From Candidatus Bathyarchaeota archaeon (GTDB taxonomy: Archaea > Thermoproteota > Bathyarchaeia > Bathyarchaeales > Bathycorpusculaceae): a stretch of DNA of 64,000 nt. The notes under the pieces were generated by a model. That model searched no databases. It saw only the letters and a program-made list of their open reading frames with translations, and was not told the origin of the DNA. A program made the position numbers and the translations under genes. The stretch is from NCBI GenBank assembly GCA_963775685.1, contig CAVZJV010000014.1, positions 1-64,000 on the forward strand, in the 5' to 3' direction. This document shows, in pieces, positions 7,663-44,471 of this stretch. Each line of letters starts with the position of its first letter. Positions within the stretch are counted from its first letter, which is position 1.

Positions 7663-7699
7663 GTTCTATTGTTAGAACGAAACGTTCTATGACCAGAGC
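7663..7699 (+). promoter_or_regulatory. tandem palindromic operator GTTCTA-N4-TAGAAC-N5-GTTCTA-N4-CAGAGC
   Basis: Same geometry at 9765, 32180 and 37982; TATA-like sequence follows. Confidence 0.75.
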
Positions 7700-9764: not shown

Positions 9765-9801
9765 GTTCTAATACTAGAACAAAGTGTTCTATCAGCAGAG
9801 C
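9765..9801 (+). promoter_or_regulatory. tandem palindromic operator (GTTCTA type)
   Basis: gttcta-atac-tagaac-aaagt-gttcta-tcag-cagagc-taaaa. Confidence 0.75.
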
Positions 9802-18763: not shown

Positions 18764-18819
18764 ACAATCCTTTTGCAAACCAATAGTCATTAGGCTTTAG
18801 CATAAAAAATTTTTGAGCT

Positions 18820-20073
18820 TCATTTTTTTCTTTTCCTTGATCTTCTTAGCATTAGAATAATCACTGTCACGCAAGTAAGAATGATAATCGAAATACCTGT
18901 TATAAGTAACGGAAGGTTGAATGGTGGAGGAGAGCCAAAAGCTACTAGATATCCAGCTTCAGTTCCTACGCAGAGAATTCCGTCTGCTGCAGCAAAGGAA
19001 CTCACAAATTCGCCTATAGGGTAACGCCATATTACATATCCCGTAGAGCAGTTAAAGGCATAAAAGTCCAAGCTGTTTGAGCTTATGTAGACTACGCCGT
19101 CAACAACTGCAGGTGACGAAGCTACAGGGTACCCCGTATAGTAACTCCATATCTCGGATCCGGTGGTCGCATTGAGAGCATACATATTATCGTTTCCCGA
19201 ACCCACATAAACCACACCGTTGAAAATAGAGGGAGACGAAGTATCAAACCCACCAGTTCGATAATTCCAAATTTTGACGCCCGTTGTAGCATTTAAGGCA
19301 TAGATGTTTCCATCGTTGGAACCAAAATACACAATTCCATTTGATATGGCAGGAGAAGTTTCCGCAAAGCTTCCAGTGGTATAGTTCCAAACTTTATTGC
19401 CATTTGTAGCATTTAGAGCATAAATGTTAAAGTCAAGCGAGCAAGTGTAGATAATTCCTTCCGAAAAAGCAGGAGGTGACAAGCCTGGAATGTCGCTAGT
19501 CCATATTTGATTGCCGTTTGTGGCATTCAAAGCATAAACAACATGACCATTATTATCAAAAAGGATTCCGTTGACAACCGTTGGAGACGTACCACCATTA
19601 GCAGTATTGTTCCAAAGTGAATGACCATTTGAGGCGTCTAATGCTCCCACATAATGATTAGAGCTGAAATATACCACTCCATTGAGAACTACGGGGGTGC
19701 CTATGTTGTCAGATGAGTTATCTTGATAATCCCAGATTAATGCTCCATTGAAAGCCTTAAAAGCATAAACATCAGCCCAAGTAATTGGATTATATGCATT
19801 ATCCCCAACAAAACTGGCACCAACATAAACTACGCCGTCGACGATTGTGGGGGCGCTCCAAAAGTTCGCAAAATTTTTCGTTTGCCAAAGCACGTGTGAA
19901 GTAAGCACTGGATTACCAGTTCCCACTCCACTATGGGAAGGGTCGCCCTGAAACATTGGCCAATTTCCTGATGTTTGCTGGGCAAGCCCAAATTTAGGCA
20001 TAGTTATACTTGCACTTAAAACAACAAGTGTTAAAGCCAAAACTAATGCGAAGCTCTGGTTAAGGTTGCCCAT
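18820..20073 (-). CDS. PQQ/BamB-like beta-propeller surface protein (cargo, antisense)
   Basis: WPMFQGDPSHSG; SSPA..GVVY.GS.D..YALNATTG..IW repeats; signal peptide and C-terminal TM. Confidence 0.92.
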   Translation of the reverse strand: MGNLNQSFALVLALTLVVLSASITMPKFGLAQQTSGNWPMFQGDPSHSGVGTGNPVLTSHVLWQTKNFANFWSAPTIVDGVVYVGASFVGDNAYNPITWADVYAFKAFNGALIWDYQDNSSDNIGTPVVLNGVVYFSSNHYVGALDASNGHSLWNNTANGGTSPTVVNGILFDNNGHVVYALNATNGNQIWTSDIPGLSPPAFSEGIIYTCSLDFNIYALNATNGNKVWNYTTGSFAETSPAISNGIVYFGSNDGNIYALNATTGVKIWNYRTGGFDTSSPSIFNGVVYVGSGNDNMYALNATTGSEIWSYYTGYPVASSPAVVDGVVYISSNSLDFYAFNCSTGYVIWRYPIGEFVSSFAAADGILCVGTEAGYLVAFGSPPPFNLPLLITGISIIILTCVTVIILMLRRSRKRKK

Positions 20074-20160
20074 GTTTATGCAGTTGATTTAATCTGATAT
20101 AATGTTTCCCTAATTCAAACTCCAATTAGATTAACTTAAGCTTGAGCAAAAAGTGATATC

Positions 20161-20511
20161 ATGTCTACCCTAAGGTATGGTTCTTTGGCGAATGTTCAAG
20201 TTATGGCAGCCGTGACTGTAAATGATGGCGTGAGCTCTGCCGATACGGAGTTAACTATGTATTTGGGTAAGGCCTGCGATTTCATTAACGACTCCCTCAA
20301 GGGATTTGTGTCGGTACCGCTGGATCCTGTGCCTGCAGTTGTGGATACGATTGCAGAGTTCTACGCTTCGGGGCTCTATCTTGCCCGAAACAATCTTCCT
20401 GACGGCCAGACGCAGCATCCCAACGTGGTCTTGGCAGAAAAGAAGCTGGCTGAGTATAGGGCAAGTCTTCGCCGAGGCTACAAACTGTTTAGTAACGCTG
20501 AAGAGGAGTAA
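20161..20511 (+). CDS. head-tail adaptor
   Basis: Position; YLGKACDFINDSLKG...VPLDPVPAVV pattern. Confidence 0.7.
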   Translation: MSTLRYGSLANVQVMAAVTVNDGVSSADTELTMYLGKACDFINDSLKGFVSVPLDPVPAVVDTIAEFYASGLYLARNNLPDGQTQHPNVVLAEKKLAEYRASLRRGYKLFSNAEEE

Positions 20512-20517
20512 GGCGCC

Positions 20518-20976
20518 TTGTCTGTTCGGGTTAAAGTTGATTCCACTAGGCTTGAGAGTCTAGTCGGTGGGGTGGCTGCTCAGCAAGGGCTTGTTTTTGG
20601 TGAGTGGCAACGGCAGGGATCCGTCGAGGCTGAGCGTGTGTTGCAAGCTAATACACCTGTTCGCACGGGGTTTCTGCGTGACAGTATCGTTAAGCAGTTG
20701 ACGCCTTCAGGTTTCACAGTTTACCCCACAGCATCCTATGCATCATCAGTAGAGCATGGGACTGGTCCGCACACGATTTTTCCTTCACATGCCAAGGTTC
20801 TCTGTTTCAGAACCGGCAAGCTTGGTTGGGTGTTCGGGGAAGGCGCAATATTTGCCAGGCGAGTTAAGCATCCCGGGTTTGCTGGTCGCTTTTTCATACG
20901 CAAAAGCCGTGATGAGTTGCGTGTTAAACTGCGAGATTTGTATTTGATGCTTTGGAGTCGGATGCAAAATGAGTAA
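20518..20976 (+). CDS. HK97 gp10-like neck protein
   Basis: TPVRTGFLRDSI...YASSVEHGT...HPG..GRFF. Confidence 0.85.
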   Translation: MSVRVKVDSTRLESLVGGVAAQQGLVFGEWQRQGSVEAERVLQANTPVRTGFLRDSIVKQLTPSGFTVYPTASYASSVEHGTGPHTIFPSHAKVLCFRTGKLGWVFGEGAIFARRVKHPGFAGRFFIRKSRDELRVKLRDLYLMLWSRMQNE

Positions 20977-21394
20977 CACAATATTAGCCATTAAAGTAGC
21001 TGTTAAAAGTGTTCTTTTGGATGCTTCTTTAGGTCAGGTTTCTAAGTGGCTCTCAGCTGAGCCTTCGCCTTCTGCTTATCCTGGGCTGTGTTTTGGGTGG
21101 GTTGAGTGGAGCGGCGGGTCCGTTGTGCAGGCGAATTTTGATCGCAAAAAAGCGGTTGATGAATTCTTCATAGTCATAATTACTAAGAATGCTGATTCCG
21201 ACCAGGCGGAAAGTGACGGATTGGCGCTAGCTGAGAAGGCTGAGGCTTTGTTCTCTGCTGATCGTAAGTTGGGTGGCGCCGTAACTGATAGTTTGATAAC
21301 GTTGCGTGAGAAGCAAAAAGTGTTCGACGGAAAATTCAGCATTAATGCTGTTCGGTTAACGCTGCAAACTTGGCGCTGGATATCTACTAATTAA
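20969..21394 (+). CDS. tail terminator protein (putative)
   Basis: Position; DRKLGGAV motif. Confidence 0.65.
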   Translation: MSNTILAIKVAVKSVLLDASLGQVSKWLSAEPSPSAYPGLCFGWVEWSGGSVVQANFDRKKAVDEFFIVIITKNADSDQAESDGLALAEKAEALFSADRKLGGAVTDSLITLREKQKVFDGKFSINAVRLTLQTWRWISTN

Positions 21395-21460
21395 GCGATT
21401 AAAAATGTGTTTTTCTATTCTTTAACTCATACTCTGCAGACATAGATAAAAAGAGAGTTA

Positions 21461-21920
21461 GTCAAGAAACATTGACAAGCCTTTGGTCAAGAAATCGCAA
21501 ATTCCCTCTCCAGGACATCAGTATTTCACAGGGTCAACTGAAGTCACGAAATATGCCAGACGGAAATCATAATATCACAATAACAGCTTATGCAGGCGGC
21601 TTCTATCCTGCTGACGGCTTCAGTATAGGTGATGGATTAGGATTTTATCGCTTTCTGATTAATGGTATGTCTACAGTCTTTTTCACAGCTGGTAACCCAG
21701 CAAATGCAACTCCTTTAGCACACATATTCAAACACCTTTGCTGACGCCTTCGCACTCAATTGACAACTTGTTCTTTCAAATAGAAATTCTAATAGTCTTA
21801 GTTTCGATATTTATCATCATTACAGTCTCCATATTTGTTTTCAGAAGGCATCGAAAAACAGTTAACTTAGTCAAGAAACTTTGACCGAGCAGTTTTCTGA
21901 GTTAGTCAAGAAAGCTTGAC
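21461..21920. repeat. three GTCAAG-N4-[ACT]TTGAC palindromes (21461, 21870, 21905) plus a half site (21486)
   Basis: Directly visible; a fourth copy is at 34919. Confidence 0.8.
21472..21884 (+). pseudogene. 5'-truncated, frameshifted surface-protein gene
   Basis: Ig-like fragment (GNHNITITAYAGG), then in another frame a TM helix plus FRRHRKTVNLVKKL*. Confidence 0.65.
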
Positions 21921-21952
21921 GAAAGGCTTTTTATTCCAAACAAAATGAAAAT

Positions 21953-22591
21953 GTGAATGGCTATAATATGAAAATAATTGCCCTCGTGATGCTTGCCTTC
22001 CTTGTCTATTCCACATTTTTTGCAGCTTGCAACGGAGCAGTATGGTTTGAAGGATACAACCCGCAGGAATTCCAAGAAATCCGACTAAACATGCAATACA
22101 TTCAACAACCTCCTGAACACACGCCATCTTCTCCTCCCTTTTGTCATTTGACTCTAAATGAAACAGAACCGCATACTGTTAACCTCACAATAACCGTTTC
22201 CACGATGGCACTATTCCGCCAAACTTCAAACTTTGAAACTTGGCTATCCATCGACTCCCAAGAACCCGAAAAACTAGTTGGAGTCCTTGATTCAACCGTT
22301 TCAGCAACGGGAGCAACATACCAACGCCAATATAACGTAACCCTAAACGAGTTGGTGGATGGCACTCACTCCATAGAAATTCGGGTAGCAGGAGACTATT
22401 ACGGTCCCGATCTTGAGGGAGAGAAATACAACTGCGAAGGCAACATAACCGCTATAATTAACGACTTAACTATAACTCCGTCCCCTTCTGTTCCAGAGTT
22501 TTCTTGGTTAACAATTCTACCCTTACTACTCGCTATTCCAATTGCTCTGGTCATATTCAGAAAAACCGTTTCTAGAAACATTACCTTGTAG
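21953..22591 (+). CDS. surface protein with PEF-CTERM-like sorting tail
   Basis: Signal peptide, DGTHSIEI Ig-like strand, PSVPEF-TM-RK. Confidence 0.85.
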   Translation: MNGYNMKIIALVMLAFLVYSTFFAACNGAVWFEGYNPQEFQEIRLNMQYIQQPPEHTPSSPPFCHLTLNETEPHTVNLTITVSTMALFRQTSNFETWLSIDSQEPEKLVGVLDSTVSATGATYQRQYNVTLNELVDGTHSIEIRVAGDYYGPDLEGEKYNCEGNITAIINDLTITPSPSVPEFSWLTILPLLLAIPIALVIFRKTVSRNITL

Positions 22592-22724
22592 GATTGAAGC
22601 ACCAACAAAAAACATGATTGTCATAAGGCGGGTTTTAGCTAACACTCCTGTTAATCAATTAGTTTTGGTAACTGCCTTTTTGGCATTACAACTAAAAATT
22701 TAGAAATTTTGGAGGCAAAAAATT

Positions 22725-23117
22725 ATGTCTATTCCAGTCCCTGTTTTGGGTAGAGATGCTCGTTTAATAAAATCCAGTGTCGCCATCGGTTTTGGCAAAA
22801 GCATTAAAGTATCCGCGGATGCTGAAGAAATAAAAGTCTACAGTATGGATTCTTTGCAGCCTGCTATCACTGCTGCTGGGAAGCAGTCTTTTAAGTGGTC
22901 CTGTGATCGGCTTTTCACCGATAAAACTTATTTGGCGCTGCTGATGGCTGGCACCAAGTTTGATTTGGTGTTTGCTCCCGAGGGCGATGCTGAGGGCGAT
23001 ACGGTTGAGACTTGGAAGAACTGCAGTATTTTGCATTGTGAGCGTTCAGCCGGCGAAGATGACGGCGTTTTGGAGAGCATTAGTGGTTCTGCCGAAAATG
23101 TCGAGTTTCCAGCTTAA
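22725..23117 (+). CDS. tail tube protein
   Basis: GGAGG RBS, position before the chaperone, beta-rich. Confidence 0.7.
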   Translation: MSIPVPVLGRDARLIKSSVAIGFGKSIKVSADAEEIKVYSMDSLQPAITAAGKQSFKWSCDRLFTDKTYLALLMAGTKFDLVFAPEGDAEGDTVETWKNCSILHCERSAGEDDGVLESISGSAENVEFPA

Positions 23118-23126
23118 GGCGGGTTA

Positions 23127-23600
23127 TTGATGGGTAATGAAAAGAAGTTGAGTTCTGCTGCGGCTGCTATGTTGCCTGAGAATGAGGCTAAGATTGCAGA
23201 GTTTAAGAGGCGTGCTGAAGCTGACGATGCCCGAAATGAAACAGTTACCAAGTTATTTGACCCTGTTGCGTTGCTGCAGCGAGCTGGCCAGATCCATGAA
23301 GCTCAACATCCAACTTTGGGTTTGATTCGTTATGGTGAATTGGTGATCGCTGATTCCGAGGTTATCAATAAATGCAAGAACAAAGCAGACCGCAACGCTA
23401 TGAGCATCTATTTGATGCTTAAGAAAGCCTATTCTAATCTCCCAGATTATACCCCTGAGACCATTAATGAATTTAACCATTCTTTTCCAATGTTGGAAGC
23501 ATCAGAACTAATCAAGTTCCTAAATGAGCAACCGGGTTTTTTGTTAACCAAATCGCCACCTGGATCAAGCACAGTTCAGACGCCGAAAACATCGGCTTAA
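23127..23600 (+). CDS. tail assembly chaperone (gpG-like)
   Basis: Between tube and tape measure; slippery G_GGT_TTT at 23534-23540. Confidence 0.75.
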   Translation: MMGNEKKLSSAAAAMLPENEAKIAEFKRRAEADDARNETVTKLFDPVALLQRAGQIHEAQHPTLGLIRYGELVIADSEVINKCKNKADRNAMSIYLMLKKAYSNLPDYTPETINEFNHSFPMLEASELIKFLNEQPGFLLTKSPPGSSTVQTPKTSA

Positions 23601-23710
23601 TTCTCTCTACTTTTCCCCAATTCAATTTTAGCAGCTTGCGAGAGCTCACAATCCTGCAGTATAATTACCTGGTTGCCTGGGCAAGACTGCATCAGGTTAA
23701 GGTGAGGTAG
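23540..23710 (+). CDS. -1 frame extension (gpT-like part of gpGT)
   Basis: FVNQIATW...LRELTILQYNYLVAWARLHQVKVR*, stops 1 nt before the tape measure start. Confidence 0.75.
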   Translation, partial: FVNQIATWIKHSSDAENIGLILSTFPQFNFSSLRELTILQYNYLVAWARLHQVKVR

Positions 23711-23711
23711 C

Positions 23712-25067
23712 TTGGCTGATTCTGACATAGAAATCAATCTAGAACTAATCGACAATGCTAGTAGTCAGCTAGCGGAAGCCTCATCAAACATTTCCAGCAG
23801 CCTTGATATGGTTTCAAATTCGAGTAGCCAATTAGCTTCTGCCGCTGAATCGACCGTGCCTCCATTATCTGAGAGTGAGCATGCTCAGAGGCAGTTGACT
23901 TCTGCAGCAGTGGAGCTGAAGGATACACAGTCTACGTTGGCGTCTGCCACTGAGAACCTCAACACCGCTATTCGGAAGAATGGATCCGATAGCCAAGAGG
24001 CCGCTGTGGCTCTTCGGGATTTTACAGCTGCCCAGCAAAATCTTAAGAATAGCCAAAGTGAGCTTAATTCTATTACCAAGCAGAGTTCTGGTTCTCTAAA
24101 GGGATTTGCTCTTGGTGCATCTGGAGCTGCCACTGCAGGCTTTAGTCTCTATAGTAGTTTTGATAGGATTCAGAAAGCGGAGCTTGCGGTTGACAGGGCT
24201 AATTTGCAGGTGCGCACTTCCACTAAAGGGGTTGAGGATGCCCAGCGTAACCTCAATGCAGCCGTGGTTGAGCATGGCGCTAGTAGTGTCGAAGCTAAAG
24301 CCGCGTCAGAGCAACTAAGCATTGCACAGGAGCGTTTGGAGGTATCCAATGAGCGGGCTAAGCAGTCGCAGGACAACGTCAATCAAGCAATGATCGCAAG
24401 TGCAATACAAGTTATCCCTTCCACCATCACCATGGTTGATAGTCTAAGTAGGGCTTGGAAGAATTTTCCCGACATGACAGGCGTTCTAAAGACTCTTGGT
24501 ACCAATGTTTCTGATGTTGGCAGCAAGGCGTCGCTTGCGGCTATTGGGGTTGGTTCTTTTGTCGGCGGCTTCACTTTGGGGGTTACTGTGATTAAGCAGT
24601 TTGGTGACCAGCTGGGTCCTGTTGGCAGGGCTTTGATGGTTGTTGTTCCAGCTATTATTGCGGCTGCCGCTGCGGTTTGGATGCTCCAGGAAGGCATAAC
24701 CTTGGGAGTTGCCACCGCTGCTTTGGTTGCTTCTGGTGTTGCTGTGGGCGCTATGGTTGCGAACCTGCAGAGTTATGGCAATGTCGCTGGTTTAGCCGCA
24801 GGTGGCGTGGTTGATCACCCGATGCTGGCGTTGATCGGTGAAGGCGGCGAAAAAGAAATCGTTATGCCCCTTAGCCAATACGAGGCCCAACGCACAGAAA
24901 GCAAAGAAACAAAGCAGGCTGCAGCTGGCTATCCACAGAACGTGACTTACATCACCTTTGAGCAGCACCTTCACGGCGATATTGTCAGCCCTGCCGATGA
25001 AGACAGAGTAGCCCAAAAAGCAATTGACAAACTTGATGAGGAACTGTATCGCAGGAGAAACAGTTAA
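23712..25067 (+). CDS. tail tape measure protein (short, 451 aa)
   Basis: IEINLELIDNAS start, coiled coils, TM region, GLAAGGVV...LIGEGGEKEIVMPL. Confidence 0.88.
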   Translation: MADSDIEINLELIDNASSQLAEASSNISSSLDMVSNSSSQLASAAESTVPPLSESEHAQRQLTSAAVELKDTQSTLASATENLNTAIRKNGSDSQEAAVALRDFTAAQQNLKNSQSELNSITKQSSGSLKGFALGASGAATAGFSLYSSFDRIQKAELAVDRANLQVRTSTKGVEDAQRNLNAAVVEHGASSVEAKAASEQLSIAQERLEVSNERAKQSQDNVNQAMIASAIQVIPSTITMVDSLSRAWKNFPDMTGVLKTLGTNVSDVGSKASLAAIGVGSFVGGFTLGVTVIKQFGDQLGPVGRALMVVVPAIIAAAAAVWMLQEGITLGVATAALVASGVAVGAMVANLQSYGNVAGLAAGGVVDHPMLALIGEGGEKEIVMPLSQYEAQRTESKETKQAAAGYPQNVTYITFEQHLHGDIVSPADEDRVAQKAIDKLDEELYRRRNS

Positions 25068-25427: not shown

Positions 25428-28226
25428 ATGGCAAGATGGTCAATTGAATACTACGATGATGTTGCACAAGACTTCGTTGAATTCACAGGGTACAATCTTA
25501 ATCAGGTTTATGAGGAACTGGGCGAGAACGGCGAGCCACATCTATATTTTCATGTGTTCAATACGGCTGCCAACCGTGCACTTTTGCAGCAAGACCTTCT
25601 GGTTAATGCGTATTATAATGACGTGCTGCAGTTCACGGGGATTCTGCAGGGCGGAGATATAGAAGATCGCCCTGGCAAAATCAAAATGGTTGTCTACGAC
25701 GATTTTATCATAACGCTTGATCAGGCCTCATCATTCACAGGCGCGTATGAAAAATCAGCCAAAGACATAATCGACGCAATCCTTGATGGCACTGGCTATA
25801 GTGCGCACTCAAGTACACCGACAACTATTATCCCTGTTGTTTTCTACCATGCGAACCGACTTGATGCGATTAAATTCATGCAGAAGGCGCTTGCATGTGA
25901 CGTTTGGCACAGTGGAACAACAGTCTATTTCGGCGCCAAAGGTGCAGAAGTAACCCACAATCCAACAACTATAGCACTCAGCAAACGTGGCATAGACCGA
26001 TCCAAAGGGCAATTTACAAAAGTTGAGATCAGAGGCACTGACGTAACTGGATTTCACATTTTAGGAGTTGCCGGCTCGGGCACAAAGGTCTGGAAGGGCA
26101 ACGAAGACCAGATGACCGATGAAACAACCCTCAACAGTATAGCAGCTAAGAAACTTGCAGAGTTAGCCACTGATTCAAGCGGTTTGCCTGTTAGTGTTCT
26201 GATGACAGAGGGCAAAGACTACTCGCTTGGCGAATCAGTCGCAGTATCAGATGCGCGTTACCTGCTTGATGGAACATACCGAATCATGCAGATGACTAAA
26301 ACAAAATTCAAATGCAATATGCAGCTTGATAGGGCGCGTAAAACGCTTGCTGCGACAGTTGATGAACTGAAAGGTTGGGAGAAAAAAGGCATCTATGCGC
26401 CTGGAAGTGAAGCATGGGAAGTTAACCTTCAGGGGCTAGTTGGGCTTTTCCACCTAAATGAAGGCGAAGGCACAATCGCGAAGAATGCAGCGCCCCTTGA
26501 AGAACCAATCGATGGAGTAATTAATGATGGAAGTTGGGAAGATGGACCTATCACAAAAATGCTTACATTTAATGGAACAAGCTCTATGGTTAGTCTTGGC
26601 GATGCCAGTCAAGCAGGAATCAACTTTACGGGTAAGCTGAGTTTTGGCGGCTGGTTTTCTCCTTCAGCAACTGATTCAACCAAACGTTTTGTCTGCCATA
26701 AAGACGGTCAATTCGCATTGTATTATCATGTTAACACAGGCGTTCTTGGCTGCGATATAGTCACTGACACTGGTACGCATAGTTATAGTTCTGATGCTGG
26801 TTTGATCAAGGTCGGTGGCCGCATTTTTGTTATGGTTACTTATGATCAAGTTAAAGTGCGCATGTACTATAATGGTTGGCTGCATAAAGAATGGTCATTG
26901 ACGGGTGCGCCGTTATCTTCAGAGAACCCTGTTTATCTTGGTGTTTTCTTGAAGGGTGTTCTATCAGAAGTTATGCTCTGGTCACGGGCTCTGGTTGATC
27001 AGGAGGTGCTTGAGCTCTACTTTTTTCCCCTGCTTAGGTCTATGAGTAAAATTAAGCCAGATGGCTTTTATCTGACGTATGGTCCCAGCGTTAAAGAGCG
27101 TAAGGCTGTTACGCTTGATTACATGCTGAGTTCTTTAATCCTTAATGGTGAAGCAGTTGTTTCTTCGGCTACTGGAACGATGAACAGCTACGAAGCAGGG
27201 TATGCAGTTTTGGCACTTCTGGATTTTGGCGGATCATCGTATTATGGTCTTTGTGAGGATATTTTGGATTTGTGGGTTTCTCTGCAGAACGTTGATGGCA
27301 GCTGGTACCAACAGTACAATCCATATTCGCCCTATGACGTTGTTGCTTTGACCTCTTTGGGCACTGATGGCGATTTGAAGGTTGATTCTGGTGCTGCTCT
27401 TCTTGCTTGGGCAATGAGTCGCTATGATGAGTTAACAAGTAGTACAAGATACAGAGTTATAGTTCAGAAAGCGTTAAGCTTTTTGCGGGACCTTCAATAC
27501 TCTCACCTGGTTGCTCACTCAACTAACTTGCTCTCAAACCTTATTTTAGATGGAGTAACAGACACGACTGCATTGCTTGCTGATTGTGGTGAATGCTTGC
27601 TTTCAGCTAAACATGCCTTAGATGCGTATGGCGACAGTCTGCTGACGTCGGCAAGTTATAGCGTGAAAACCTTCGCAAACGACCTCTACTATAGTATATG
27701 TGTGGTTGGGTGGCGAGGCAGCTTAGCTCTCTATTTTGATACTTCTTATCCCTATGAACAAAACACGAGCATCCCATTCAACTATAAGGAGAAAATTAGC
27801 TATACTCAGGCTCTTTGCAGCTGGGCAGTCTTCGAGTTTGCTGGCAGTGCATATTTAACTGCGTCTGATTACCGATCAGGAATCTGTGAACCTTGCCTTG
27901 ATTATATTGTTACTGTTACTAGGGGGTCTTGGGGCGGAGAGTATTTTTGCCCTTATACCGGGGGAACTGGGGAATCGCAGGATGAATTTGCAGGTTATTC
28001 TGGCCTATTGTGTATTGCTGCGCAAAAGGTGAACAACACAAAATATACCCATCTCATAACGGGCTTGAGAGGCTTCATTAGGTGGCTCACGTTGCCCGAC
28101 GGCCAGATATGTGATGTTGCTGATGCAACGGGAAAATTGTGGCGCAGCAAATTAGATGAGACCACAGAAGGCGGGTTCTTAGTTTTGCCAATCGCTATTG
28201 CTTTGTTGGCTGGCGCTGGAAGTTAA
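25428..28226 (+). CDS. tail-tip/hub protein with LamG domain and C-terminal alpha/alpha-toroid domain
   Basis: Hub-like N-terminus; GLVGLFHLNEGEGT...LWSRAL...E (LamG); QNVDGSWYQQY helical repeats. Confidence 0.8.
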   Translation: MARWSIEYYDDVAQDFVEFTGYNLNQVYEELGENGEPHLYFHVFNTAANRALLQQDLLVNAYYNDVLQFTGILQGGDIEDRPGKIKMVVYDDFIITLDQASSFTGAYEKSAKDIIDAILDGTGYSAHSSTPTTIIPVVFYHANRLDAIKFMQKALACDVWHSGTTVYFGAKGAEVTHNPTTIALSKRGIDRSKGQFTKVEIRGTDVTGFHILGVAGSGTKVWKGNEDQMTDETTLNSIAAKKLAELATDSSGLPVSVLMTEGKDYSLGESVAVSDARYLLDGTYRIMQMTKTKFKCNMQLDRARKTLAATVDELKGWEKKGIYAPGSEAWEVNLQGLVGLFHLNEGEGTIAKNAAPLEEPIDGVINDGSWEDGPITKMLTFNGTSSMVSLGDASQAGINFTGKLSFGGWFSPSATDSTKRFVCHKDGQFALYYHVNTGVLGCDIVTDTGTHSYSSDAGLIKVGGRIFVMVTYDQVKVRMYYNGWLHKEWSLTGAPLSSENPVYLGVFLKGVLSEVMLWSRALVDQEVLELYFFPLLRSMSKIKPDGFYLTYGPSVKERKAVTLDYMLSSLILNGEAVVSSATGTMNSYEAGYAVLALLDFGGSSYYGLCEDILDLWVSLQNVDGSWYQQYNPYSPYDVVALTSLGTDGDLKVDSGAALLAWAMSRYDELTSSTRYRVIVQKALSFLRDLQYSHLVAHSTNLLSNLILDGVTDTTALLADCGECLLSAKHALDAYGDSLLTSASYSVKTFANDLYYSICVVGWRGSLALYFDTSYPYEQNTSIPFNYKEKISYTQALCSWAVFEFAGSAYLTASDYRSGICEPCLDYIVTVTRGSWGGEYFCPYTGGTGESQDEFAGYSGLLCIAAQKVNNTKYTHLITGLRGFIRWLTLPDGQICDVADATGKLWRSKLDETTEGGFLVLPIAIALLAGAGS

Positions 28227-29594: not shown

Positions 29595-30044
29595 ATGTCT
29601 GAGAAAACAGTCTCAATCCTTCGAGCAATAGGAAACCCGAACAAAGCAAAAATAATCGCGCACCTGGCAAAGCATAGAGGTGAGACGGCTGAAGGCATTG
29701 GAAAACACTTAGGCTATCCGCTACCAACCGTTTACAAGTACCTTCGAGAGCTTGAAGCTGCAAGCGTTGTAGAGAGCGAAGCTAAAGGCAACACAAGAGT
29801 GTATTTTGCTGGCGATTTCAAGCTTGAAGTTTCTCCTGAGAAGTTAATGGAGGCGTTCGAGGAACAAACGATGATGGATCTCCACAAAGGCCGATTTGGG
29901 GCTAAGGGCATAGAGAAGTTTAACAACGTTGCAGCTAAAGCGAAAGCGGGAAAGATGACTTTTAGGCAAGCAGCCGCCACACTGGGAATAACCTACTACG
30001 AGTTTATCTCACTTTTAGAAGAAGCCGGCGCTCTGGATGCCTAA
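29595..30044 (+). CDS. wHTH antitoxin/regulator (ArsR-like plus UPF0175-like C-terminus)
   Basis: AIGNPNKAKII...TVYKYLRELE; MTFRQAAATLGITYYEF. Confidence 0.75.
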   Translation: MSEKTVSILRAIGNPNKAKIIAHLAKHRGETAEGIGKHLGYPLPTVYKYLRELEAASVVESEAKGNTRVYFAGDFKLEVSPEKLMEAFEEQTMMDLHKGRFGAKGIEKFNNVAAKAKAGKMTFRQAAATLGITYYEFISLLEEAGALDA

Positions 30045-32705: not shown

Positions 32706-33128
32706 TTGGTTGACGATGACCCCAAAGAAGTGCTAAGAGGAACTACTCTTGAAGTTTACCGTTTTCTGTTAAAAAGCAACAAGCCTATTGGAACAAGGGA
32801 ACTTCAAAGAGCTCTAAACCTTAGCAGTTCCTCGGTAGCCACGTACCATCTATCTAAACTTGAAGATGCCGGGCTTCTAAGAAAGGAGCCTGGCGGTTTC
32901 ACCGTTAGCAAATTCCTTTTGGAAAACAGCATCAAAATAAATCGTTTTCTAGTTCCAAGATACTTTTTTTATGCGATATTTGCCATAGCAATTCTCATAA
33001 TAGAATTGACAATTATGAAGCCGGCTGTTCTTTATCGTGAATACGTTTTTTCGTTGGTTGCAACCGTTATACTCACCTTTTTCTTTTGTTACGAAACACT
33101 AAAAACTTGGCGACGGGGCAATTTGTAA
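32706..33128 (+). CDS. membrane-anchored wHTH transcription regulator
   Basis: LRGTTL...PIGTRELQRALNLSSSSVATYHLSKLEDAGL plus 2 TM helices. Confidence 0.88.
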   Translation: MVDDDPKEVLRGTTLEVYRFLLKSNKPIGTRELQRALNLSSSSVATYHLSKLEDAGLLRKEPGGFTVSKFLLENSIKINRFLVPRYFFYAIFAIAILIIELTIMKPAVLYREYVFSLVATVILTFFFCYETLKTWRRGNL

Positions 33129-33162: not shown

Positions 33163-34818
33163 CTACCTTCTATTTATCACTGAAGATCGCCGTCTCCTTT
33201 TTGCTCTAATGACAATGATAGTTACTGCGGCTATGATTGCGGCTGCAACTAATAGTCCGATTATAAGTGGAGTTGAAAAGGAAGTGGCTGACTGGTTCCA
33301 ATAGTATATTTGGCTGTATTTTTCAGTGATGTTATAGGCTGGGTCGTCATAGACTATGTCTAGTTTTGAGCCGTATTGCGCCAGTTTGTTTTGGAGCTGG
33401 TTCCAGATTTGCTGTGACGTATCATTTGGTTTCCACAATCCCCAAATCGTGTCGTTTGTATGCCTCATGCCCCATCCATAGTCTTGGGGTAAAACCAATG
33501 CTGCTTCACCTGTAATTCCGCCATGGACAACCTTGGGGTTTTGCACTACATCGTTCCAGAAGCGCTGGAGAGCTTGGAAATGCTCAGTCTGTAATGTTCC
33601 ATAGGGATCAGTCATGTTTTCAGCGTAATTAAAAACCACAACATACTGAGCGCCACACTCATAAGACAAGTGCATTTGATCATACATTTCATCTCCGCTG
33701 GGTAAATAGGGCGGCTGATTGTATTTCCAATCTATGATAGTGCCCCAATTTTTACCCTGCAAATTCGCCGATCCTCTTACAAGACCGATTTCTTGGGCAA
33801 CAGTATTATTCCAGCCTAATTCAGCAAAGACTGTATCATAGCCAATTTGGTAGTCCCACCAATAAAGAACATAGTCAGAAGTGAAAAGCTTAACGTCATC
33901 TCGATTAGCTATCCAATCTGTTGTCGCTTGCTGGTTTTTTAAATAAGACGCGGCTACTGCGGATAAATCATCCATTGTTTGGAATGGACGTGAATCCCAA
34001 AGTTGTCGGTAGGGTTCAAACTGGGAAATATTACCCATATCCGTCACCGCTACAAAAAAGGGTTTATTTAACAATTGGTTGAGAACAGTTCCAGTTGTTC
34101 TCCAAGAGTCATTATTTGCGTTCGGAGAGCTTGTTTGTTTGAGCACGGTTCCATTTGTCAAGTAAATCACATATTCATTGTTTTTTGCAAGAGCGATGGT
34201 TCCATTCGGAAAATAGTTAATCATCGTGTAATTGCCTGCCGCCAAGTCAGCATACTGTACATTAATCTGTCCTGAAAAGTCAGGACTATAAAGGAATGAT
34301 TTACTCGTCATGATTGAGCCAGAGGTTTGGCTGACGGTGAGGTCATGGCTGCTTACCGACACATTGCCTATATTGGGTACGTTATCCAAGCGCATGATTC
34401 CATCGAATGCTTTTCCGCTAGCTTCATCTCCATAGTATATTCCCAAGAAGTGGTTGCCCCATCGTTCCTGCGCTGTATCGATAAAGGCAGCGGTTTTATC
34501 CCTATTTGTCTCGTATGAACCGAAATAAACGATGATATCTAACCCTGATTTAACAGCATAATCGCAAGTTTTAACCAATTCGTCGATATTACCCTGTAGG
34601 GGACCTGAAGCTACAACAAACAGGTTAGTATAATCTTTAACTTTATCAATCAGTATTTTCGCATCGGCGGCGTTGTCCCCGCCGAACGTTACGCCAACAT
34701 GAAACGGCTGGCTATCTTGTGCGTTTGCATTACCTACGCTGTTAACTGCAAAAATATTTACTATAAAAATGGCTATTAAAAGCACTGCAAACGCCGAAAA
34801 TAGTTTTGCTCTTTTCAT
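33163..34818 (-). CDS. membrane-anchored surface protein, possible glycoside-hydrolase-like TIM barrel
   Basis: Signal peptide, FLGIYYGDE motif, C-terminal TM. Confidence 0.85.
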   Translation of the reverse strand: MKRAKLFSAFAVLLIAIFIVNIFAVNSVGNANAQDSQPFHVGVTFGGDNAADAKILIDKVKDYTNLFVVASGPLQGNIDELVKTCDYAVKSGLDIIVYFGSYETNRDKTAAFIDTAQERWGNHFLGIYYGDEASGKAFDGIMRLDNVPNIGNVSVSSHDLTVSQTSGSIMTSKSFLYSPDFSGQINVQYADLAAGNYTMINYFPNGTIALAKNNEYVIYLTNGTVLKQTSSPNANNDSWRTTGTVLNQLLNKPFFVAVTDMGNISQFEPYRQLWDSRPFQTMDDLSAVAASYLKNQQATTDWIANRDDVKLFTSDYVLYWWDYQIGYDTVFAELGWNNTVAQEIGLVRGSANLQGKNWGTIIDWKYNQPPYLPSGDEMYDQMHLSYECGAQYVVVFNYAENMTDPYGTLQTEHFQALQRFWNDVVQNPKVVHGGITGEAALVLPQDYGWGMRHTNDTIWGLWKPNDTSQQIWNQLQNKLAQYGSKLDIVYDDPAYNITEKYSQIYYWNQSATSFSTPLIIGLLVAAAIIAAVTIIVIRAKRRRRSSVINRR

Positions 34819-34907
34819 TCAACAGCTCTCCTTTAGCTTCTAATTACCGGTAAATACAGCATTAGGCTTCTTATTTTTATCCCTAATTCGAAGTGTTCTA
34901 ATCTTTA

Positions 34908-35882
34908 GTGCAGTCTTGGTTAAGAAACCTTGACGAATGCACTTATATCTTTAATGAGTGCCTAACAAATTGTAGAGATGATGATGTGAACAAGCATTGG
35001 GTTCTGCCAATCAGCCTTGCCTTTCTTTTGTCCATGGTTGCCACTATTCCAGTTATCAATGCACAATCAGTTGGCAATATAGTGATCAACTCCGACGGCG
35101 CCTTCACAGGGACAGATGCCATTAACCGCAAGGGTAACACCTACACTTTAACGGCAAACATTTCAGGCAACATACAAATTCAGAGGAGCAACATAATAGT
35201 AGACGGCGCAGGGTATTCGCTTAACCAAGGTGGAATAGACCTAACAAACGGAATAGGGCAAGACCCAACACGTTCTACCATTATCAATGTAACAATCGAA
35301 AACTTGTATGTCGAAAGCGGCAGCATAGGCACTAATGGGGGTGGAAATTACACTTTCTACGATGACTACATACCTTCTATCCAGTTTTTAGGAGACTGTA
35401 TTAACAATAACATAACTTTCTGCACCGTTGAAGCAGTATCATTTGATTACGGAGGAAACGCAACATTAACTGAAAATAACCTCGGTAGCGTCTTAGTATG
35501 GTTAAGCTTTGGCGGAGTTGCTGACAGAAACTATTGGAGTGATTATTTAACAAAATATTCTAATGCTACAGAAATAGACAGCACGGGAATAGGTAACACG
35601 CCCTATGTATATTCTATAGTAGAAACACAGACGCCCTTAATCTATAAGGACAATCATCCGTTAATGAAGCCAGTTGCAATTCCGTTGATGGGTTCAAATA
35701 CTTTAAGCCCATTAACCCCAACACCTACTATAACACAGCTTCCTACAGTTAATACTGGTGCAGAAACACCACAGACAGAGTCTATAATTATTGTCGCTAT
35801 TACCTTTGTAATCGCATTAGCGGTGGCTGCTGGTTTGTTTTACTATTTCAGGAAACAGAAGCATGGAGCTGTACAAGGATGA
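34908..35882 (+). CDS. NosD/beta-helix-like surface protein (likely start about 34986)
   Basis: IVINSDG...YTLTANI...IIVDGAGYSL; NYWSDY...GIGNTPY...DNHPLMKP; C-terminal TM. Confidence 0.85.
   Translation: MQSWLRNLDECTYIFNECLTNCRDDDVNKHWVLPISLAFLLSMVATIPVINAQSVGNIVINSDGAFTGTDAINRKGNTYTLTANISGNIQIQRSNIIVDGAGYSLNQGGIDLTNGIGQDPTRSTIINVTIENLYVESGSIGTNGGGNYTFYDDYIPSIQFLGDCINNNITFCTVEAVSFDYGGNATLTENNLGSVLVWLSFGGVADRNYWSDYLTKYSNATEIDSTGIGNTPYVYSIVETQTPLIYKDNHPLMKPVAIPLMGSNTLSPLTPTPTITQLPTVNTGAETPQTESIIIVAITFVIALAVAAGLFYYFRKQKHGAVQG
34919..34934. promoter_or_regulatory. palindrome gttaag-aaac-cttgac upstream of a TATA-like ttatat
   Basis: Matches the 21905 site, with the same 8-nt spacing to a TATA-like element. 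Confidence 0.65.
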
Positions 35883-40153: not shown

Positions 40154-41423
40154 ATGGTTGGATATTCAGGCGGGGTTAAGTCTTCTGACGTTTTTGGCAC
40201 CTTCTCCAGCATGCCCGCTTGTGGATCCACGCTTCAAGAAAGCATCCCCCTAAACCCACCTTGCCCTCAATGTAACTCAAAACGGCTATGGCGAGACTCC
40301 AAACGTTACACAGCCGCAGGAGACGAAATACAAAGATGGCTCTGCCGAGACTGTGGCTTACGTTTTAGCGATCCAATGGACCTCAAAAACTCATGGACCA
40401 ATAAGGAAAGGGCGCATCGGACCAATCAACCCAATGAATTAAAAACGGCACAGGGAATACTATATCTCAAGCCAAATATGCGCAATCGAGACGAAAAATT
40501 TGGATGCAGAACAACAGACCACTGGAGTTCTGCGGAGCAACAATCAAGCAGACATCAAAGGCAAAATCATTGAACACGCTTTCTGGATGCAAAAAGAAGG
40601 ATACGCCGAAGCAACAATCTCACGCCGCATACGGTTCCTAAAAACAATGATGAACAAAGGAGCCAACCTAGCAGACCCCGAATCACTCAAAGAAATGATA
40701 GCCAGACAACAAAACTGGCAAGTCAAAACAAAAGACATCGCCGTCGAAACATACAGCCTCTTCCTAAAAATGCAAGGCTTAACCTGGAACCCACCAAAAT
40801 TCAAAAGCGTCAAAAAACTGCCATTTATCCCAACAGAGCAAGAAATCAACAGCCTAATCGCCGGCAGCAACAGAAAAACCGCAACCTTCCTACAGCTACT
40901 CAAAGAAACAGGAATGCGATGCGGAGAAGCCTTCATGCTCAAATGGACCGACTTCAACTTCGAAAACAGAACCGTCGACATAACCCCCGAAAAAGGCAGC
41001 GAACCAAGACAACTACCAATCTCAAATCAGCTAATAGCAATGCTAAACAGCCTACCAAGAGACCACGAACAACCCTACGGATGCAGCGAAAGACATTTCG
41101 CAAGAGCCTTCCGCCTACAAAGAAGCAGAATAGCATTCAACCTCAAAAACGACCGCTTAAAAAAAATCCACTTCCACACCCTACGCCACTGGAAAGCCAC
41201 CACTGAATACGCCAAAACCAAAGACATCTTACACGTCATGAAAATACTCGGCCACAGAAACATCCAAAACACCTTACTCTACACACAGCTCATAACTTTC
41301 AAAAACGACGAATTCCACACCGCAACCGCCAAAACCGTAGAAGACGCACAAAAACTCGTTGAAGCAGGATTTGAATACGTATGCGACTTTGGAGAAGTAA
41401 AACTATTCAGGAAGCGAAAGTAA
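40154..41423 (+). CDS. tyrosine integrase with N-terminal Zn ribbon, split by a +1 indel near 40463
   Basis: CPQC...QRWLCRDCGLRFS; ETGMRCGEA, HTLRH, LGHRNIQNTLLY. Confidence 0.9.
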
Positions 41424-41632: not shown

Positions 41633-42940
41633 TTATTTAGCTTTTCTGAAATAGTGGACGCCTCCATCGTTGATATTAAGCACTGGATCATAACCTTTTT
41701 GCAGTAGCATTCTGATTCTCGGTTTGTCATTGTCGTCGGCTTCTTGCACGTCAAATTCTTGATTGTTACCAAAGTAATCGACGCTTAATCTGGCGTATAA
41801 TCCGACGTAACTTAGCGACGTGTGGCCTAACAGGTATTGAACGCTGTCTGGGTTGCCTTTTTTGTGTCTTTCCTCGGTTGCTCGCCAGTATCGGCAGGTG
41901 TAAAAGTGTATTTTGCGAAGTTCTTGGTTGCCTGTCTTTGCGATTGCTCGTTTGCGCATTCTTCGGAATCCTTTTTCAGCATATTGATATTCTCCGTAGG
42001 AAAACACCAGTTTTCCCTTTCTTGGTAACTGCTGGAGCATGCTAATTAGATCGTCGCTTACTCTGATGGCGCGTGTATTGTTGCCTTTAGCTGGATGATT
42101 GATGGCTATTTTTTTGTTTGCGAAGTCTATGTCGTTCCATTCTATTCTAAGCGCTTCAACGGGTCTGGCAGCTGTATCTTTGAGGGTAAAGCAAAAGCAA
42201 GTCATCTGTTGGCTGAAGCTGTTAAACAGCTGTGCAAGATGCTCAGTTGGTGGTAAGTAAGGGTCTTTTCGTCGGGCACATTTGTATTTAGGCAGTTTAC
42301 AATCGATTTTGCGGTAGTTAAGAAAGCTTTGGTATGCTTTTGCTAAACAGTATTTGTGGGTTTCTGAGAAGCTGCTTAAGGCAAGGGTTTCTTTGAATGA
42401 TTCTGGATTAAAGAGGTTTACTCCATTTGTTGATAGCTGATTTAATGAATGCCGGTAACTTCTGATTGTTCCTTCTGCTTTATTTTCTTTCTTCAGGTGC
42501 CATAGGAAGTCAAGGATTGCGCCGTTTTGGTCCATCTCACTTTTCTGCGGAACTTTTACGATTTGTTGTTCCGCTTCCAAATTTTTCGTCTCCGTAACGC
42601 ATATTTGGCGAGTAAATACTTTGTCTTCGGCGCTTTTTAATGACTTCGTTTCAATCATTTCAACTGTTGCAACAGCTTTCTTAGCCTGCAATAGGTCGTT
42701 AGGGTCTGAAAATCGTAGGCCACATTCTCGGCAGAGCCACCGTTGGATTGATTCACCAAACATTAGGGAACGAGTGCCGTCTCGCCAGACTTTTTTTGAG
42801 CTGCATTGTGGGCATTGGGGGCAGGTGCCGGCAAAGGCTTGGGCAGACTCTGACTTACAAGATTTAGAAACAGCTTTAGTGTCAAATACGTATTCTTCTG
42901 TCGAGATGCCATGACTAGCCTGTCCTTGCCCATCAATCAA
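41633..42940 (-). CDS. tyrosine integrase with N-terminal Zn ribbon (second element)
   Basis: CPQC...QRWLCRECGLRFS; TAARPVEA, HFYTCRY, LGHTSLSYVGLY. Confidence 0.9.
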   Translation of the reverse strand: MIDGQGQASHGISTEEYVFDTKAVSKSCKSESAQAFAGTCPQCPQCSSKKVWRDGTRSLMFGESIQRWLCRECGLRFSDPNDLLQAKKAVATVEMIETKSLKSAEDKVFTRQICVTETKNLEAEQQIVKVPQKSEMDQNGAILDFLWHLKKENKAEGTIRSYRHSLNQLSTNGVNLFNPESFKETLALSSFSETHKYCLAKAYQSFLNYRKIDCKLPKYKCARRKDPYLPPTEHLAQLFNSFSQQMTCFCFTLKDTAARPVEALRIEWNDIDFANKKIAINHPAKGNNTRAIRVSDDLISMLQQLPRKGKLVFSYGEYQYAEKGFRRMRKRAIAKTGNQELRKIHFYTCRYWRATEERHKKGNPDSVQYLLGHTSLSYVGLYARLSVDYFGNNQEFDVQEADDNDKPRIRMLLQKGYDPVLNINDGGVHYFRKAK

Positions 42941-43705: not shown

Positions 43706-44098
43706 TTGCCAAGAAAAATAGAAAAAGAACCAACCGAAGGCGACTACACAACCATAAAACTTCCAAACGACCTAGTCTGCTCCATGGACAAATTAATCGG
43801 CACCTACGGCTTTAAGAGCCGCGCAGAAATCGTAAAAGAAGCCCTCCGCGAACTATTAAACAAATACAAACCCCCCCTGCCACGCTATGACCACTTCAAC
43901 ATGGGAGTGCATGGCGTGCGAATCACCGATCGGCAGCTCCACCGAATAGCCGACATCCGCTTTAGGCCAGAGGGAATCTATTGCGAATTAGACGAGAGTG
44001 AGACCTGTGGACACATAGAATTTGCCTTAACGGTTCCGGAAATCAAAGAAATAATCCGCAACAAAAGAAAAGAAGGCTGGAAACTCCCAGACATCTAA
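43706..44098 (+). CDS. RHH regulator with C-terminal Cys/His domain
   Basis: YTTIKLPNDL...SRAEIVKEALRELL; CELD...CGHI. Confidence 0.85.
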   Translation: MPRKIEKEPTEGDYTTIKLPNDLVCSMDKLIGTYGFKSRAEIVKEALRELLNKYKPPLPRYDHFNMGVHGVRITDRQLHRIADIRFRPEGIYCELDESETCGHIEFALTVPEIKEIIRNKRKEGWKLPDI

Positions 44099-44153
44099 GA
44101 TCTTATATAAACCCCTGACCTTTCGAAGTTTCATATTTTTTCAATTGGCAAAA

Positions 44154-44471
44154 TCATTGGTAGACGTTTTTCCTTGGACCTATAGCTATAGCATAGACAC
44201 CTTTGTCTTCCTCAGAAACGGTATATATTAATCGTAGTTTTCCAACACGCAGACTAAAGTTCTCTTTCAAGTCTCCGTGAAGCTTCTTTCCAGCATACGC
44301 ATCCTCTTCTAAACTAATCAAGCACGCTCGAACGTTTATTTTGTCTTTTCCCTCTAACTTTTTGTAGAAACGCTCAGTTTGCCTTGATAAAACAACCTTG
44401 TACTTAGGCTTCAACGTGCTCTTCCTTAAGAAGGGAACGCAAATCCTTGACTCTTCCAGCCTTAATGTCAT
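44154..44471 (-). CDS. RelE/ParE family toxin (true start probably about 44414)
   Basis: YKVVLSRQ...KKLHGDLK..FSLRVGKLRLIY...IGPRKNVY. Confidence 0.88.
   Translation of the reverse strand: MTLRLEESRICVPFLRKSTLKPKYKVVLSRQTERFYKKLEGKDKINVRACLISLEEDAYAGKKLHGDLKENFSLRVGKLRLIYTVSEEDKGVYAIAIGPRKNVYQ

Follow-up and report, generated by a model that had tools for sequence, protein, structure and literature searches.

The upstream sites of Ptr2 are one example of activator sites in archaea, and others have been reported. As far as the excerpts of PMC5512572 go, activator sites typically lie upstream of the transcription factor B recognition element (BRE), and repressors overlap the BRE/TATA region or lie downstream of it. 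The same excerpts describe the EarA boxes of the fla genes in Methanococcus maripaludis and the ara-box of Sulfolobus solfataricus, short repeated sites placed directly upstream of the BRE in promoters of surface structures, which have been proposed to recruit transcription factor B (TFB) and the TATA-binding protein (TBP) to a weak core promoter. In the portions consulted of PMC4158304 and PMC4706686, the glycolytic motif of Thermococcales is presented as a palindrome common to the promoters of the TrmB/TrmBL1 regulon, its position relative to BRE/TATA setting the sign of regulation. Bathyarchaeia are among the most abundant archaea of sediments and soils, and their gene regulation is almost undescribed: a full-text literature search, with most subscription journals outside its scope, found no published promoter motif or regulon for them, and the word "promoter" is absent from the passages covered of a provirus survey (PMC11705971). 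Here, we analyse a short palindromic motif, GTCAAGAAANNTTGAC, repeated in a provirus that lies within 64,000 nucleotides of DNA from Candidatus Bathyarchaeota archaeon (assembly GCA_963775685.1, contig CAVZJV010000014.1, positions 1 to 64,000). This stretch, hereinafter the window, corresponds to the initial 64 kb of a contig of 2.47 Mb, the genome measuring 3.06 Mb. An initial annotation had considered the repeats either as a second class of operator or as an attC-like junction where surface-gene cassettes are recombined. We consider that they are most likely promoter parts, not recombination sites, and that the motif is the predicted binding site of a dimeric transcription factor of the host, a site that in one group of Bathyarchaeia lies just ahead of the promoters of genes for secreted and surface proteins; we assign this reading a probability of about 0.8.

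The motif is exact at three places in the window, 21461-21476, 21870-21885 and 21905-21920 (with their flanks, TTAGTCAAGAAACATTGAC at 21458, TTAGTCAAGAAACTTTGAC at 21867 and TTAGTCAAGAAAGCTTGAC at 21902), and has no match in 100 dinucleotide-preserving shuffles of the 64 kb. A further copy at 34919-34934 carries one mismatch (GTTAAG...). When up to two mismatches are allowed, its addition gives four matches in the window against a shuffle mean of 1.09, a count equalled by 4 of the 100 shuffles and thus unimpressive by itself. A fifth copy, starting at 21486 and hence 25 nt 3' of the one at 21461, is cut after ten letters (GTCAAGAAAT) and continues into unrelated sequence; the initial annotation had overlooked it. 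The 6-4-6 geometry originally attributed to four copies applies only to the one at 21905, the single match in the window to the strict form GTCAAG-N4-CTTGAC, and the others follow GTCAA-N6-TTGAC. It had also been pointed out that three copies can be read as L-V-K-K-x-stop. This is correct for those at 21461, 21870 and 21905, each preceded by TTA, and the copy at 34919 (TTG GTT AAG...) gives L-V-K-K-P-stop; the reading arises because the letters of the motif dictate TTA GTC AAG AAA NNT TGA. Similarly, the TGA inside the 21870 copy does close a gene with a transmembrane tail, an open reading frame (ORF) at 21738-21884 ending in ...FRRHRKTVNLVKKL*, as had been claimed. A general function of the motif as a gene end did not hold, this coincidence being incidental: only 4 of the 25 copies in the genome close an open frame of at least 40 codons.

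The distribution of the motif was compared with that of a control in which motif or genome was reversed. In its own genome, 25 copies were found at one mismatch or fewer (12 of them exact), against 1 in the control. A position weight matrix (PWM) built from these copies yielded 94 strand-specific sites at a score of at least 16 (control, 7) and 72 at a score of at least 18 (control, 2), the 94 sites collapsing to 45 unique loci. The copies are not confined to this genome. Among 40 relatives sampled, copies are present in each of the 24 that belong to the same genus (for instance, 41 versus 3 in the control), as well as in one genome belonging to another family of the order (56 versus 4), and the other 15 genomes of the order have 0-3 versus 0-2. 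A larger sample covered 150 genomes of the class with a completeness of at least 80%, searched for exact matches only; here, several copies were found only in 5 of 7 genomes of the own genus, in two more genera of the family and in one genus of a second family (4/4); none of the 12 genomes from the remaining genera of the own family had an exact match, and single hits appeared in 3 of 111 genomes from other orders. A scan for tandem copies in one genome per prokaryote species returned at least 119 loci, and the locus statistics given below rest on the loci listed. Among the 80 tandem loci displayed, 78 come from records titled Bathyarchaeia, Bathyarchaeota or MCG, and 2 bear the names of bacterial metagenome-assembled genomes; one record with the tandem motif is named Candidatus Bathyarchaeum tardum, a cultivated representative. 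The motif therefore belongs to the host lineage and not to this locus alone. Taking into account that the motif occurs in all genomes of the genus that were sampled and that the provirus is rare, the factor that recognises it is, on present evidence, encoded by the host.

The arrangement of the copies is also far from random. Of 128 tandem pairs at the 119 loci listed, 38 have a start-to-start distance of 23-25, 65 one of 33-36 and 25 one of 42-47, and none falls at 26-32 or 37-41, a search range of 21-48 having been allowed. Since these classes follow each other by steps of about 10 bp, the copies lie on a single face of the helix, and such helical phasing is a signature of cooperative protein binding. 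What follows the proximal copy is equally regular, which agrees with the positional bias towards promoters expected of an operator-like element. Thus, among the 127 listed tandem loci with full flanks, positions 2-5 after this copy are A in 113, 102, 95 and 100 cases, position 8 is C in 75, positions 9-12 are T in 87, 97, 92 and 79, and positions 13 and 14 are A in 72 and T in 75, respectively, leading to the consensus N-AAAA-NN-C-TTTTAT. It can be read as a BRE-like stretch rich in A with a TTTTAT box after it. TTA is favoured before the distal copy and TAA after it, so that the complete element would appear to be a dyad of about 22 bp, TTAGTCAAG-N4-CTTGACTAA, with the 16-base motif as its core. 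For 80 cases among the listed loci, a first ATG that opens a frame of 25 codons or more could be identified, mostly 35-55 nt past the site. Compared with hexamers that are generally enriched ahead of genes in this genome (for example, TTAAAT, TAAATA and TTTATA), the motif-linked boxes (CTTTTATC, CTTTAATC, CTTTTAC) contain shorter runs of A/T.

The genes placed behind these promoters share a tendency towards export. Thus, 57 of the 80 ORFs located downstream of the listed tandem loci have a strongly hydrophobic 12-mer within their first 35 residues, the corresponding figure for long ORFs in the own genome being 293 of 1597 (18%). Inspection of the flanks by eye in the own genome indicated that about 15 motif promoters precede genes with signal-peptide-like starts. 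Searches of Pfam and NCBIfam assigned some of the targets in this genome to PQQ_2 (PQQ-type beta-propellers) and NosD/Beta_helix, most of them having no family, and the tail of one target reached 17.2 bits with the PEF-CTERM model (TIGR03024), below its cut-off of 23. Judging from their predicted domains, the targets would mostly be secreted or membrane-anchored surface proteins (PQQ-type beta-propellers, NosD-like proteins and Ig-like proteins with a PEF-like anchor), together with a few regulators.

A side observation concerns the integrity of some of these genes. In at least five genes headed by the motif, the signal-peptide-like start breaks off after 20-57 codons and is resumed in another frame (C2:2438, L145; C14:339749, L149; C14:1166011, L152; C14:1225238, L153; C14:2033799, L160). 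In the one case looked at (L145), the break is near runs of T or A. These breaks may correspond to errors of long-read assembly or to real decay.

In the window, the complete arrangement is found upstream of an intact gene (21968-22591, plus strand), whose product of 207 amino acids has a signal-peptide-like N-terminus, an ectodomain and a C-terminal hydrophobic anchor introduced by PSVPEFSWLTILP... Its promoter consists of a distal site at 21870..21885 (plus strand, exact) and a proximal site at 21905..21920 (plus strand, the perfect palindrome GTCAAGAAAGCTTGAC, PWM score 30.4), separated by 35 nt from start to start and therefore belonging to the 33-36 class. Directly after the proximal site, positions 21921..21935 (plus strand) comprise GAAAGGC, A-rich and BRE-like, and the TATA-like box TTTTTATT, which fit the consensus and would serve as core promoter elements; the ATG is 47 nt past the proximal site. 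The claim that the copies at 21905 and 34919 precede a TATA-like box was thus confirmed, a T/A-rich box being present 7 nt past each of them (TTTTTATT at 21928 and CTTATATC at 34942).

The 207-residue protein has no Pfam or NCBIfam hit, and a look-up in a protein atlas retrieved only unnamed Bathyarchaeota clusters (score 0.76). It ends in ...PSVPEFSWLTILPLLLAIPIALVIFRKTVSRNITL, without a hit to the PEF-CTERM models, no archaeosortase search having been made. Matches to it exist in 68 of 101 genomes of the genus, most spanning only the last 40 residues, that is, the anchor. The tail itself (PSVPEFSWLTILP..., followed by a helix and basic residues; 22468-22591) is common to very many proteins of the genus, and it resembles PEF-CTERM at a score below the cut-off. 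Promoters were compared at the six loci (L203-L208, 48-66% identity) where the match includes a long N-terminal part, the tail-only loci L209-L213 being left out. In all six full-length homologues, from other species, the motif lies 55-64 nt before the start, the position of the proximal site being kept in 6/6, with GAAAA..C and a T-rich box (TTTTAT or nearly so) coming after it, in surroundings that otherwise cannot be aligned. In the alignment of the seven sequences, the invariant columns are AGTCAA, TT and AC of the motif, one A in the A-rich stretch, two T's in the box and three isolated A's elsewhere. No match to six structural proteins of the provirus was found within 1.5 kb of any of the six loci. 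The gene 21968-22591 is therefore a member of a host gene family with this promoter.

Ahead of this gene lies a second unit, which is decayed. It retains a distal site at 21461..21476 (plus strand; GTCAAGAAACATTGAC preceded by TTA, exact, PWM score 25.9) and the cut proximal site at 21486..21495 (plus strand, GTCAAGAAAT), with no BRE/TATA after it; the spacing of 25 nt corresponds to the 23-25 class. What follows is the remnant of a surface-protein gene that lacks its 5' part (21478..21741, plus strand, an Ig-like middle domain without paralogue in the own genome). The gene is split over two frames near 21735-21745, the second frame (21738..21884, plus strand) encoding a hydrophobic helix with a basic tail. 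The initial annotation was right that the copies at 21461 and 21870 bracket a 5'-truncated surface gene: the remnant has neither signal peptide nor a start in context, and in 7 of 7 genus loci examined it aligns to residues ~57-175 of proteins of 283-632 amino acids with signal peptide and anchor.

Both units are contained in an insert of 1324 bp (21384..22707), located between two tail genes of the provirus, with a GC content of 39.2% versus 49.2% and 47.8% in its flanks. Morons are genes with their own promoters, inserted between conserved structural genes of temperate phages, and the insert can be described as moron-like. A head-tail provirus is recognisable in the genes around it: an HK97-gp10-like gene at 20518-20973, the tail gene 20969-21391, found in 7 of 101 genomes of the genus, a weak tape-measure hit at 23712-25064 and a lectin-fold fibre gene at 25428-28223. 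The slot was found in three states in three related proviruses, and in this sense the suggestion that surface genes are stacked and swapped here holds as an observation. The provirus of genome G109 aligns at 89.7% over 20172-21383 and again over 22708-24908, with 34 bp in between, and this empty site contains no motif. In the provirus of genome G077, the slot is occupied by a different cassette of 820 bp coding for a beta-helix protein, and homology to the window resumes at 22468, in the sequence encoding the PSVPEFSWL anchor. As a possible terminator of the insert there is one T5 run, at 22677, which is not established. RNA-labelled contigs (four runs aligned) match only the tail genes flanking the insert, over 20900-21186 and 22911-23107, at 90-95% likeness, and a search of sequencing runs returned 20 runs, none containing half of the query words.

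A second variable slot was observed at 18764-20171 between the putative capsid and connector genes; in the window it holds a PQQ-propeller gene (GC content, 40.8%), and in G109 and G077 other content.

The remaining copy in the window, that of 34919..34934 (plus strand), is a single site with one mismatch, followed after 7 nt by CTTATATC, in the spacer of two divergent signal-peptide genes (33163-34815, minus strand, and 34986-35882, plus strand). In G077, the homologue of 33163-34815 (78.7% identity) is inverted and relocated within the provirus, with a copy of the motif at the same relative place. In the window, a half-site, GTTCTAAT, occurs at 34895-34902, 24 nt before the 34919 copy, and the G077 spacer keeps it as ATTAGAAC on the other strand. 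The G077 provirus carries a canonical unit in its capsid-connector slot (tandem sites 24 nt apart, then box and ATG) and another one elsewhere. Overall, the provirus in the window is about 14-fold enriched in the motif, with 4 copies in ~41 kb versus 21 in the remaining 3.02 Mb. Among seven loci on IMG/VR contigs, two (L174 and L175) have a canonical unit before a gene with signal peptide and anchor; the other five (L173, L176-L179), of high GC content, with off-phase spacings of 29 or 39 and without T box or signal-peptide gene, were judged probably unrelated.

On the basis of these data a mechanism can be proposed. A typical promoter has one to three copies in tandem, starting 24, 34 or 45 bp from each other and facing the same side of the helix, which would be occupied by the predicted host factor. 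The proximal copy ends one base before the A-rich, BRE-like stretch, with the short TTTTAT box coming next, and the bound factor would most likely help the recruitment of TFB/TBP to these rather weak boxes, leading to activation. In the window, the copies at 21870 and 21905 would be the promoter of the surface gene 21968-22591, next to an older, decayed unit. The virus thus carries host-type surface genes with a host promoter, which are predicted to respond to the host regulator during lysogeny.

Several observations weigh against this proposal. Among the 80 downstream ORFs, 23 are not signal-peptide-like. Only 19 of the 45 PWM loci of the own genome pass a strict test that combines site, A-rich stretch and T box, and only 9 of these 19 also pass the automatic signal-peptide test; several of the misses correspond, by eye, to frame-broken N-termini or slightly different boxes. 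Some copies are within long ORFs (e.g., C14:1397932, C14:1984059 and C11:35011). Two moron-like neighbours have promoters without the motif: the beta-helix gene of G077 and a membrane-anchored PQQ-propeller gene of the window (18820-20073, minus strand, in the slot 18764-20171), which has a motif-less TATA promoter. Two RNA runs give no cover of the insert, which says nothing about its expression. Finally, the candidates for the factor are only circumstantial, and with the extended dyad (TTA...TAA) the proximal footprint would overlap the A-rich stretch, which begins one base past the core.

This last point bears on the sign of regulation, where activation is somewhat favoured because the motif lies upstream of the BRE and the boxes linked to it have shorter A/T runs. 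The same predicted protein site could instead mediate repression, with a dimer of dimers on the tandem copies covering the BRE-like stretch and silencing surface genes and morons until a signal is received. The overlap just mentioned would fit such a silencing, cooperative phased tandem sites are typical of repressors too, and the word "operator" of the initial annotation would be appropriate. However, archaeal sites upstream of the BRE are typically those of activators (PMC5512572, as excerpted), and the linked boxes look weaker than general ones, as expected of activator-dependent promoters. Repression is therefore regarded as unlikely, although it is the alternative to be taken most seriously. 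Accepting activation as the working model, the proposal of a second operator class stood in so far as the motif is regulatory, given its register with BRE/TATA, its over-representation, phasing and conservation; what is suggested, rather than a classical operator, is an activator site.

An improbable variant maintains that the site was regulatory first, and that the promoter of ~60 bp and the anchor-coding tail act secondarily as short homology handles, through which cassettes are exchanged by ordinary recombination. The cassettes of the window and G077 do differ in their ectodomains and become homologous again from 22468, where the PSVPEF... anchor is encoded, and this anchor tail is common to very many genes of the genus. 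The presence of motif-headed genes at other slots of G077, the inversion of the 33163-34815 homologue together with its site and the enrichment of copies in the provirus point in the same direction. Against this, the left breakpoint (21381-21384) coincides with the end of the tail gene and precedes the first copy by 77 nt; no motif accompanies the cassette that fills the slot in G077; 16-22 bp is very short for homologous exchange; and no exchange event was caught. Scarcely more probable is the broader scenario in which temperate head-tail viruses of Bathyarchaeia take host surface genes together with their promoters, joining their morons to a secretome regulon of the host that might be governed by membrane-bound winged-helix sensors with the dyad in their own promoters, promoter and anchor ends being the handles by which cassettes pass between chromosome and virus. 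If this were true, the idea of a swappable cassette would be right in effect, although not via site-specific recombination.

The attC-like interpretation, in which the motif would be where the tyrosine recombinases of the locus insert and exchange cassettes of surface genes, is very improbable. It could draw on the three states of the slot, on the decayed unit standing ahead of the intact one and on the two tyrosine recombinase (integrase) genes of the window (40500-41420 and 41633-42937), and a metagenome sequence joins 21885, the end of a copy, to 22484 within one DNA run. This last joint is weak, with only 20 letters on one side; as a rearrangement it was rejected and treated as another motif-bearing gene. 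The borders of the insert, 21384 and 22707, are off the copies, 77 nt before the first one and 116 nt past the stop of the gene, and the clean joint, in a marsh metagenome contig, is that of 21379 to 22706. The motif is therefore cargo of the insert and not its junction. Moreover, the empty site of G109 lacks it, the copies are 5' of genes in a fixed register with BRE/TATA-like elements, they occur in the chromosomes of 24/24 genomes of the genus whereas the provirus is in 7/101, and the integrases are at the end of the provirus, ~19 kb from the insert. The recombination role put forward in the initial annotation has thus been abandoned. A terminator role for the palindrome, as an RNA hairpin or a signal for the end of the upstream gene, is hardly credible: the 21870 copy contains the stop of the upstream frame, with TTTT after it, and a 6-bp stem is possible for the 21905 copy, but open frames of at least 40 codons are closed by 4 of 25 copies only, most copies would form 5-bp arms with 6-nt loops, their position is fixed to the downstream box and start codon and not to upstream stops, and copies exist in divergent spacers where no gene ends.

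Regarding the factor, a protein with a cysteine-rich N-terminus and several winged-helix matches (C14:1615141, P0001) was considered and rejected as the sole one: it could not be found in G040, the genome of the other family that is rich in the motif, and genomes poor in the motif do have it. Its gene, located behind the strongest tandem site and present in 23 of 24 genomes of the genus, was kept as a conserved target. The family to which it belongs (C14:1615141-1615827 and C14:1683451-1684488) comprises proteins of ~320-350 amino acids; the first copy is shortened here to 229, and the full-length paralogue hits several winged-helix families. In several relatives, the gene is divergent from one encoding a winged-helix membrane protein of 430-460 amino acids.

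Other candidates have a DUF7347/ArsR-type winged helix (Pfam), one membrane helix and an outside domain. The gene C14:597640-598491 is divergent from a motif target, another protein of this type is encoded at C14:1223822-1224382, and 3 of the 7 copies of this family in the own genome are within 1.5 kb of motif promoters. Two more genes of the family, one in the own genome and one in the motif-rich genome of the other family of the order, have a site in the canonical register. The family also exists in motif-poor genomes, and its profile does not discriminate. The winged-helix proteins of the provirus (29595-30041 and 32706-33125) showed no useful likeness to the DUF7347-type candidate.

Two further observations, outside the main subject, were made in the window. 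The other palindrome, GTTCTA-N4-TAGAAC, has 3 copies in the genome versus 1 in the control (7663-7678 and 9765-9780 in the window, and C14:2229272), each with a third half-site (GTTCTAT or GTTCAAT) 5 nt later, and 2 of the 3 are within the provirus; it looks like a separate type of operator, possibly viral. In addition, just beyond the integrases, 43706-44468 contains a ribbon-helix-helix gene and a ParE-like toxin gene, likely a toxin-antitoxin pair.

With the motif, each genome offers a regulon that can be tested, made up of dozens of proteins, secreted or on the surface, by which these archaea make contact with polymers, surfaces and viruses. Its presence in the cultivated Candidatus Bathyarchaeum tardum makes the mapping of start sites and binding assays feasible. 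Proviruses of this group, moreover, carry surface genes headed by a site of the host's own regulation, a plausible route to lysogenic conversion in archaea.

How this locus relates to known systems can now be stated. The attC sites of integrons are long imperfect inverted repeats with unpaired bases, of ~57-141 bp, located at the 3' end of promoterless cassettes, near an integrase and attI. Both have inverted-repeat DNA recurring next to variable genes in a stack, and in both the element also encodes tyrosine recombinases. Unlike attC, the motif is a near-perfect dyad of 16-22 bp, 5' of genes with their own promoters, off the junctions and spread over the chromosome, without an adjacent integron-type integrase or attI; it lacks every attC feature that could be tested here. 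The likeness to phage morons is closer: the insert occupies a slot between tail genes that is absent from a close relative, and it has a lower GC content, its own promoter and a cell-surface product. It departs from them in its archaeal host, in having the site of a host-wide regulon in its promoter and in the decayed unit beside the intact one, its expression in the lysogen being a prediction only.

Among archaeal regulators, ArnR and ArnR1 of Sulfolobus acidocaldarius are described in the excerpts of PMC6396743 as membrane-bound factors, and the candidates considered here are likewise winged-helix proteins with a membrane helix that would control surface structures. Unlike ArnR/ArnR1 as there described, they have a DUF7347/ArsR-type domain, one helix and an outside domain, and neighbourhood and the copies in their own promoters are what links them to the motif. 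With the TrmB/TrmBL1 motif, as far as those sources were covered, our motif has in common that it is a palindrome of the promoters of one functional class and that its place relative to BRE/TATA would set the sign of regulation; its sequence is unrelated, and secreted and surface proteins take the place of sugar metabolism among its targets. The EarA boxes and the ara-box, within the excerpts cited at the outset, are the systems it most recalls, since it also consists of short sites, more than one per promoter, directly upstream of the BRE and in front of surface genes. The motif, known here from sequence alone, differs from the 6-bp EarA boxes in being a dyad of 16-22 bp, in belonging to Bathyarchaeia and in serving dozens of promoters per genome versus one operon, and from both systems in the strict 10-bp-stepped classes of its spacing.

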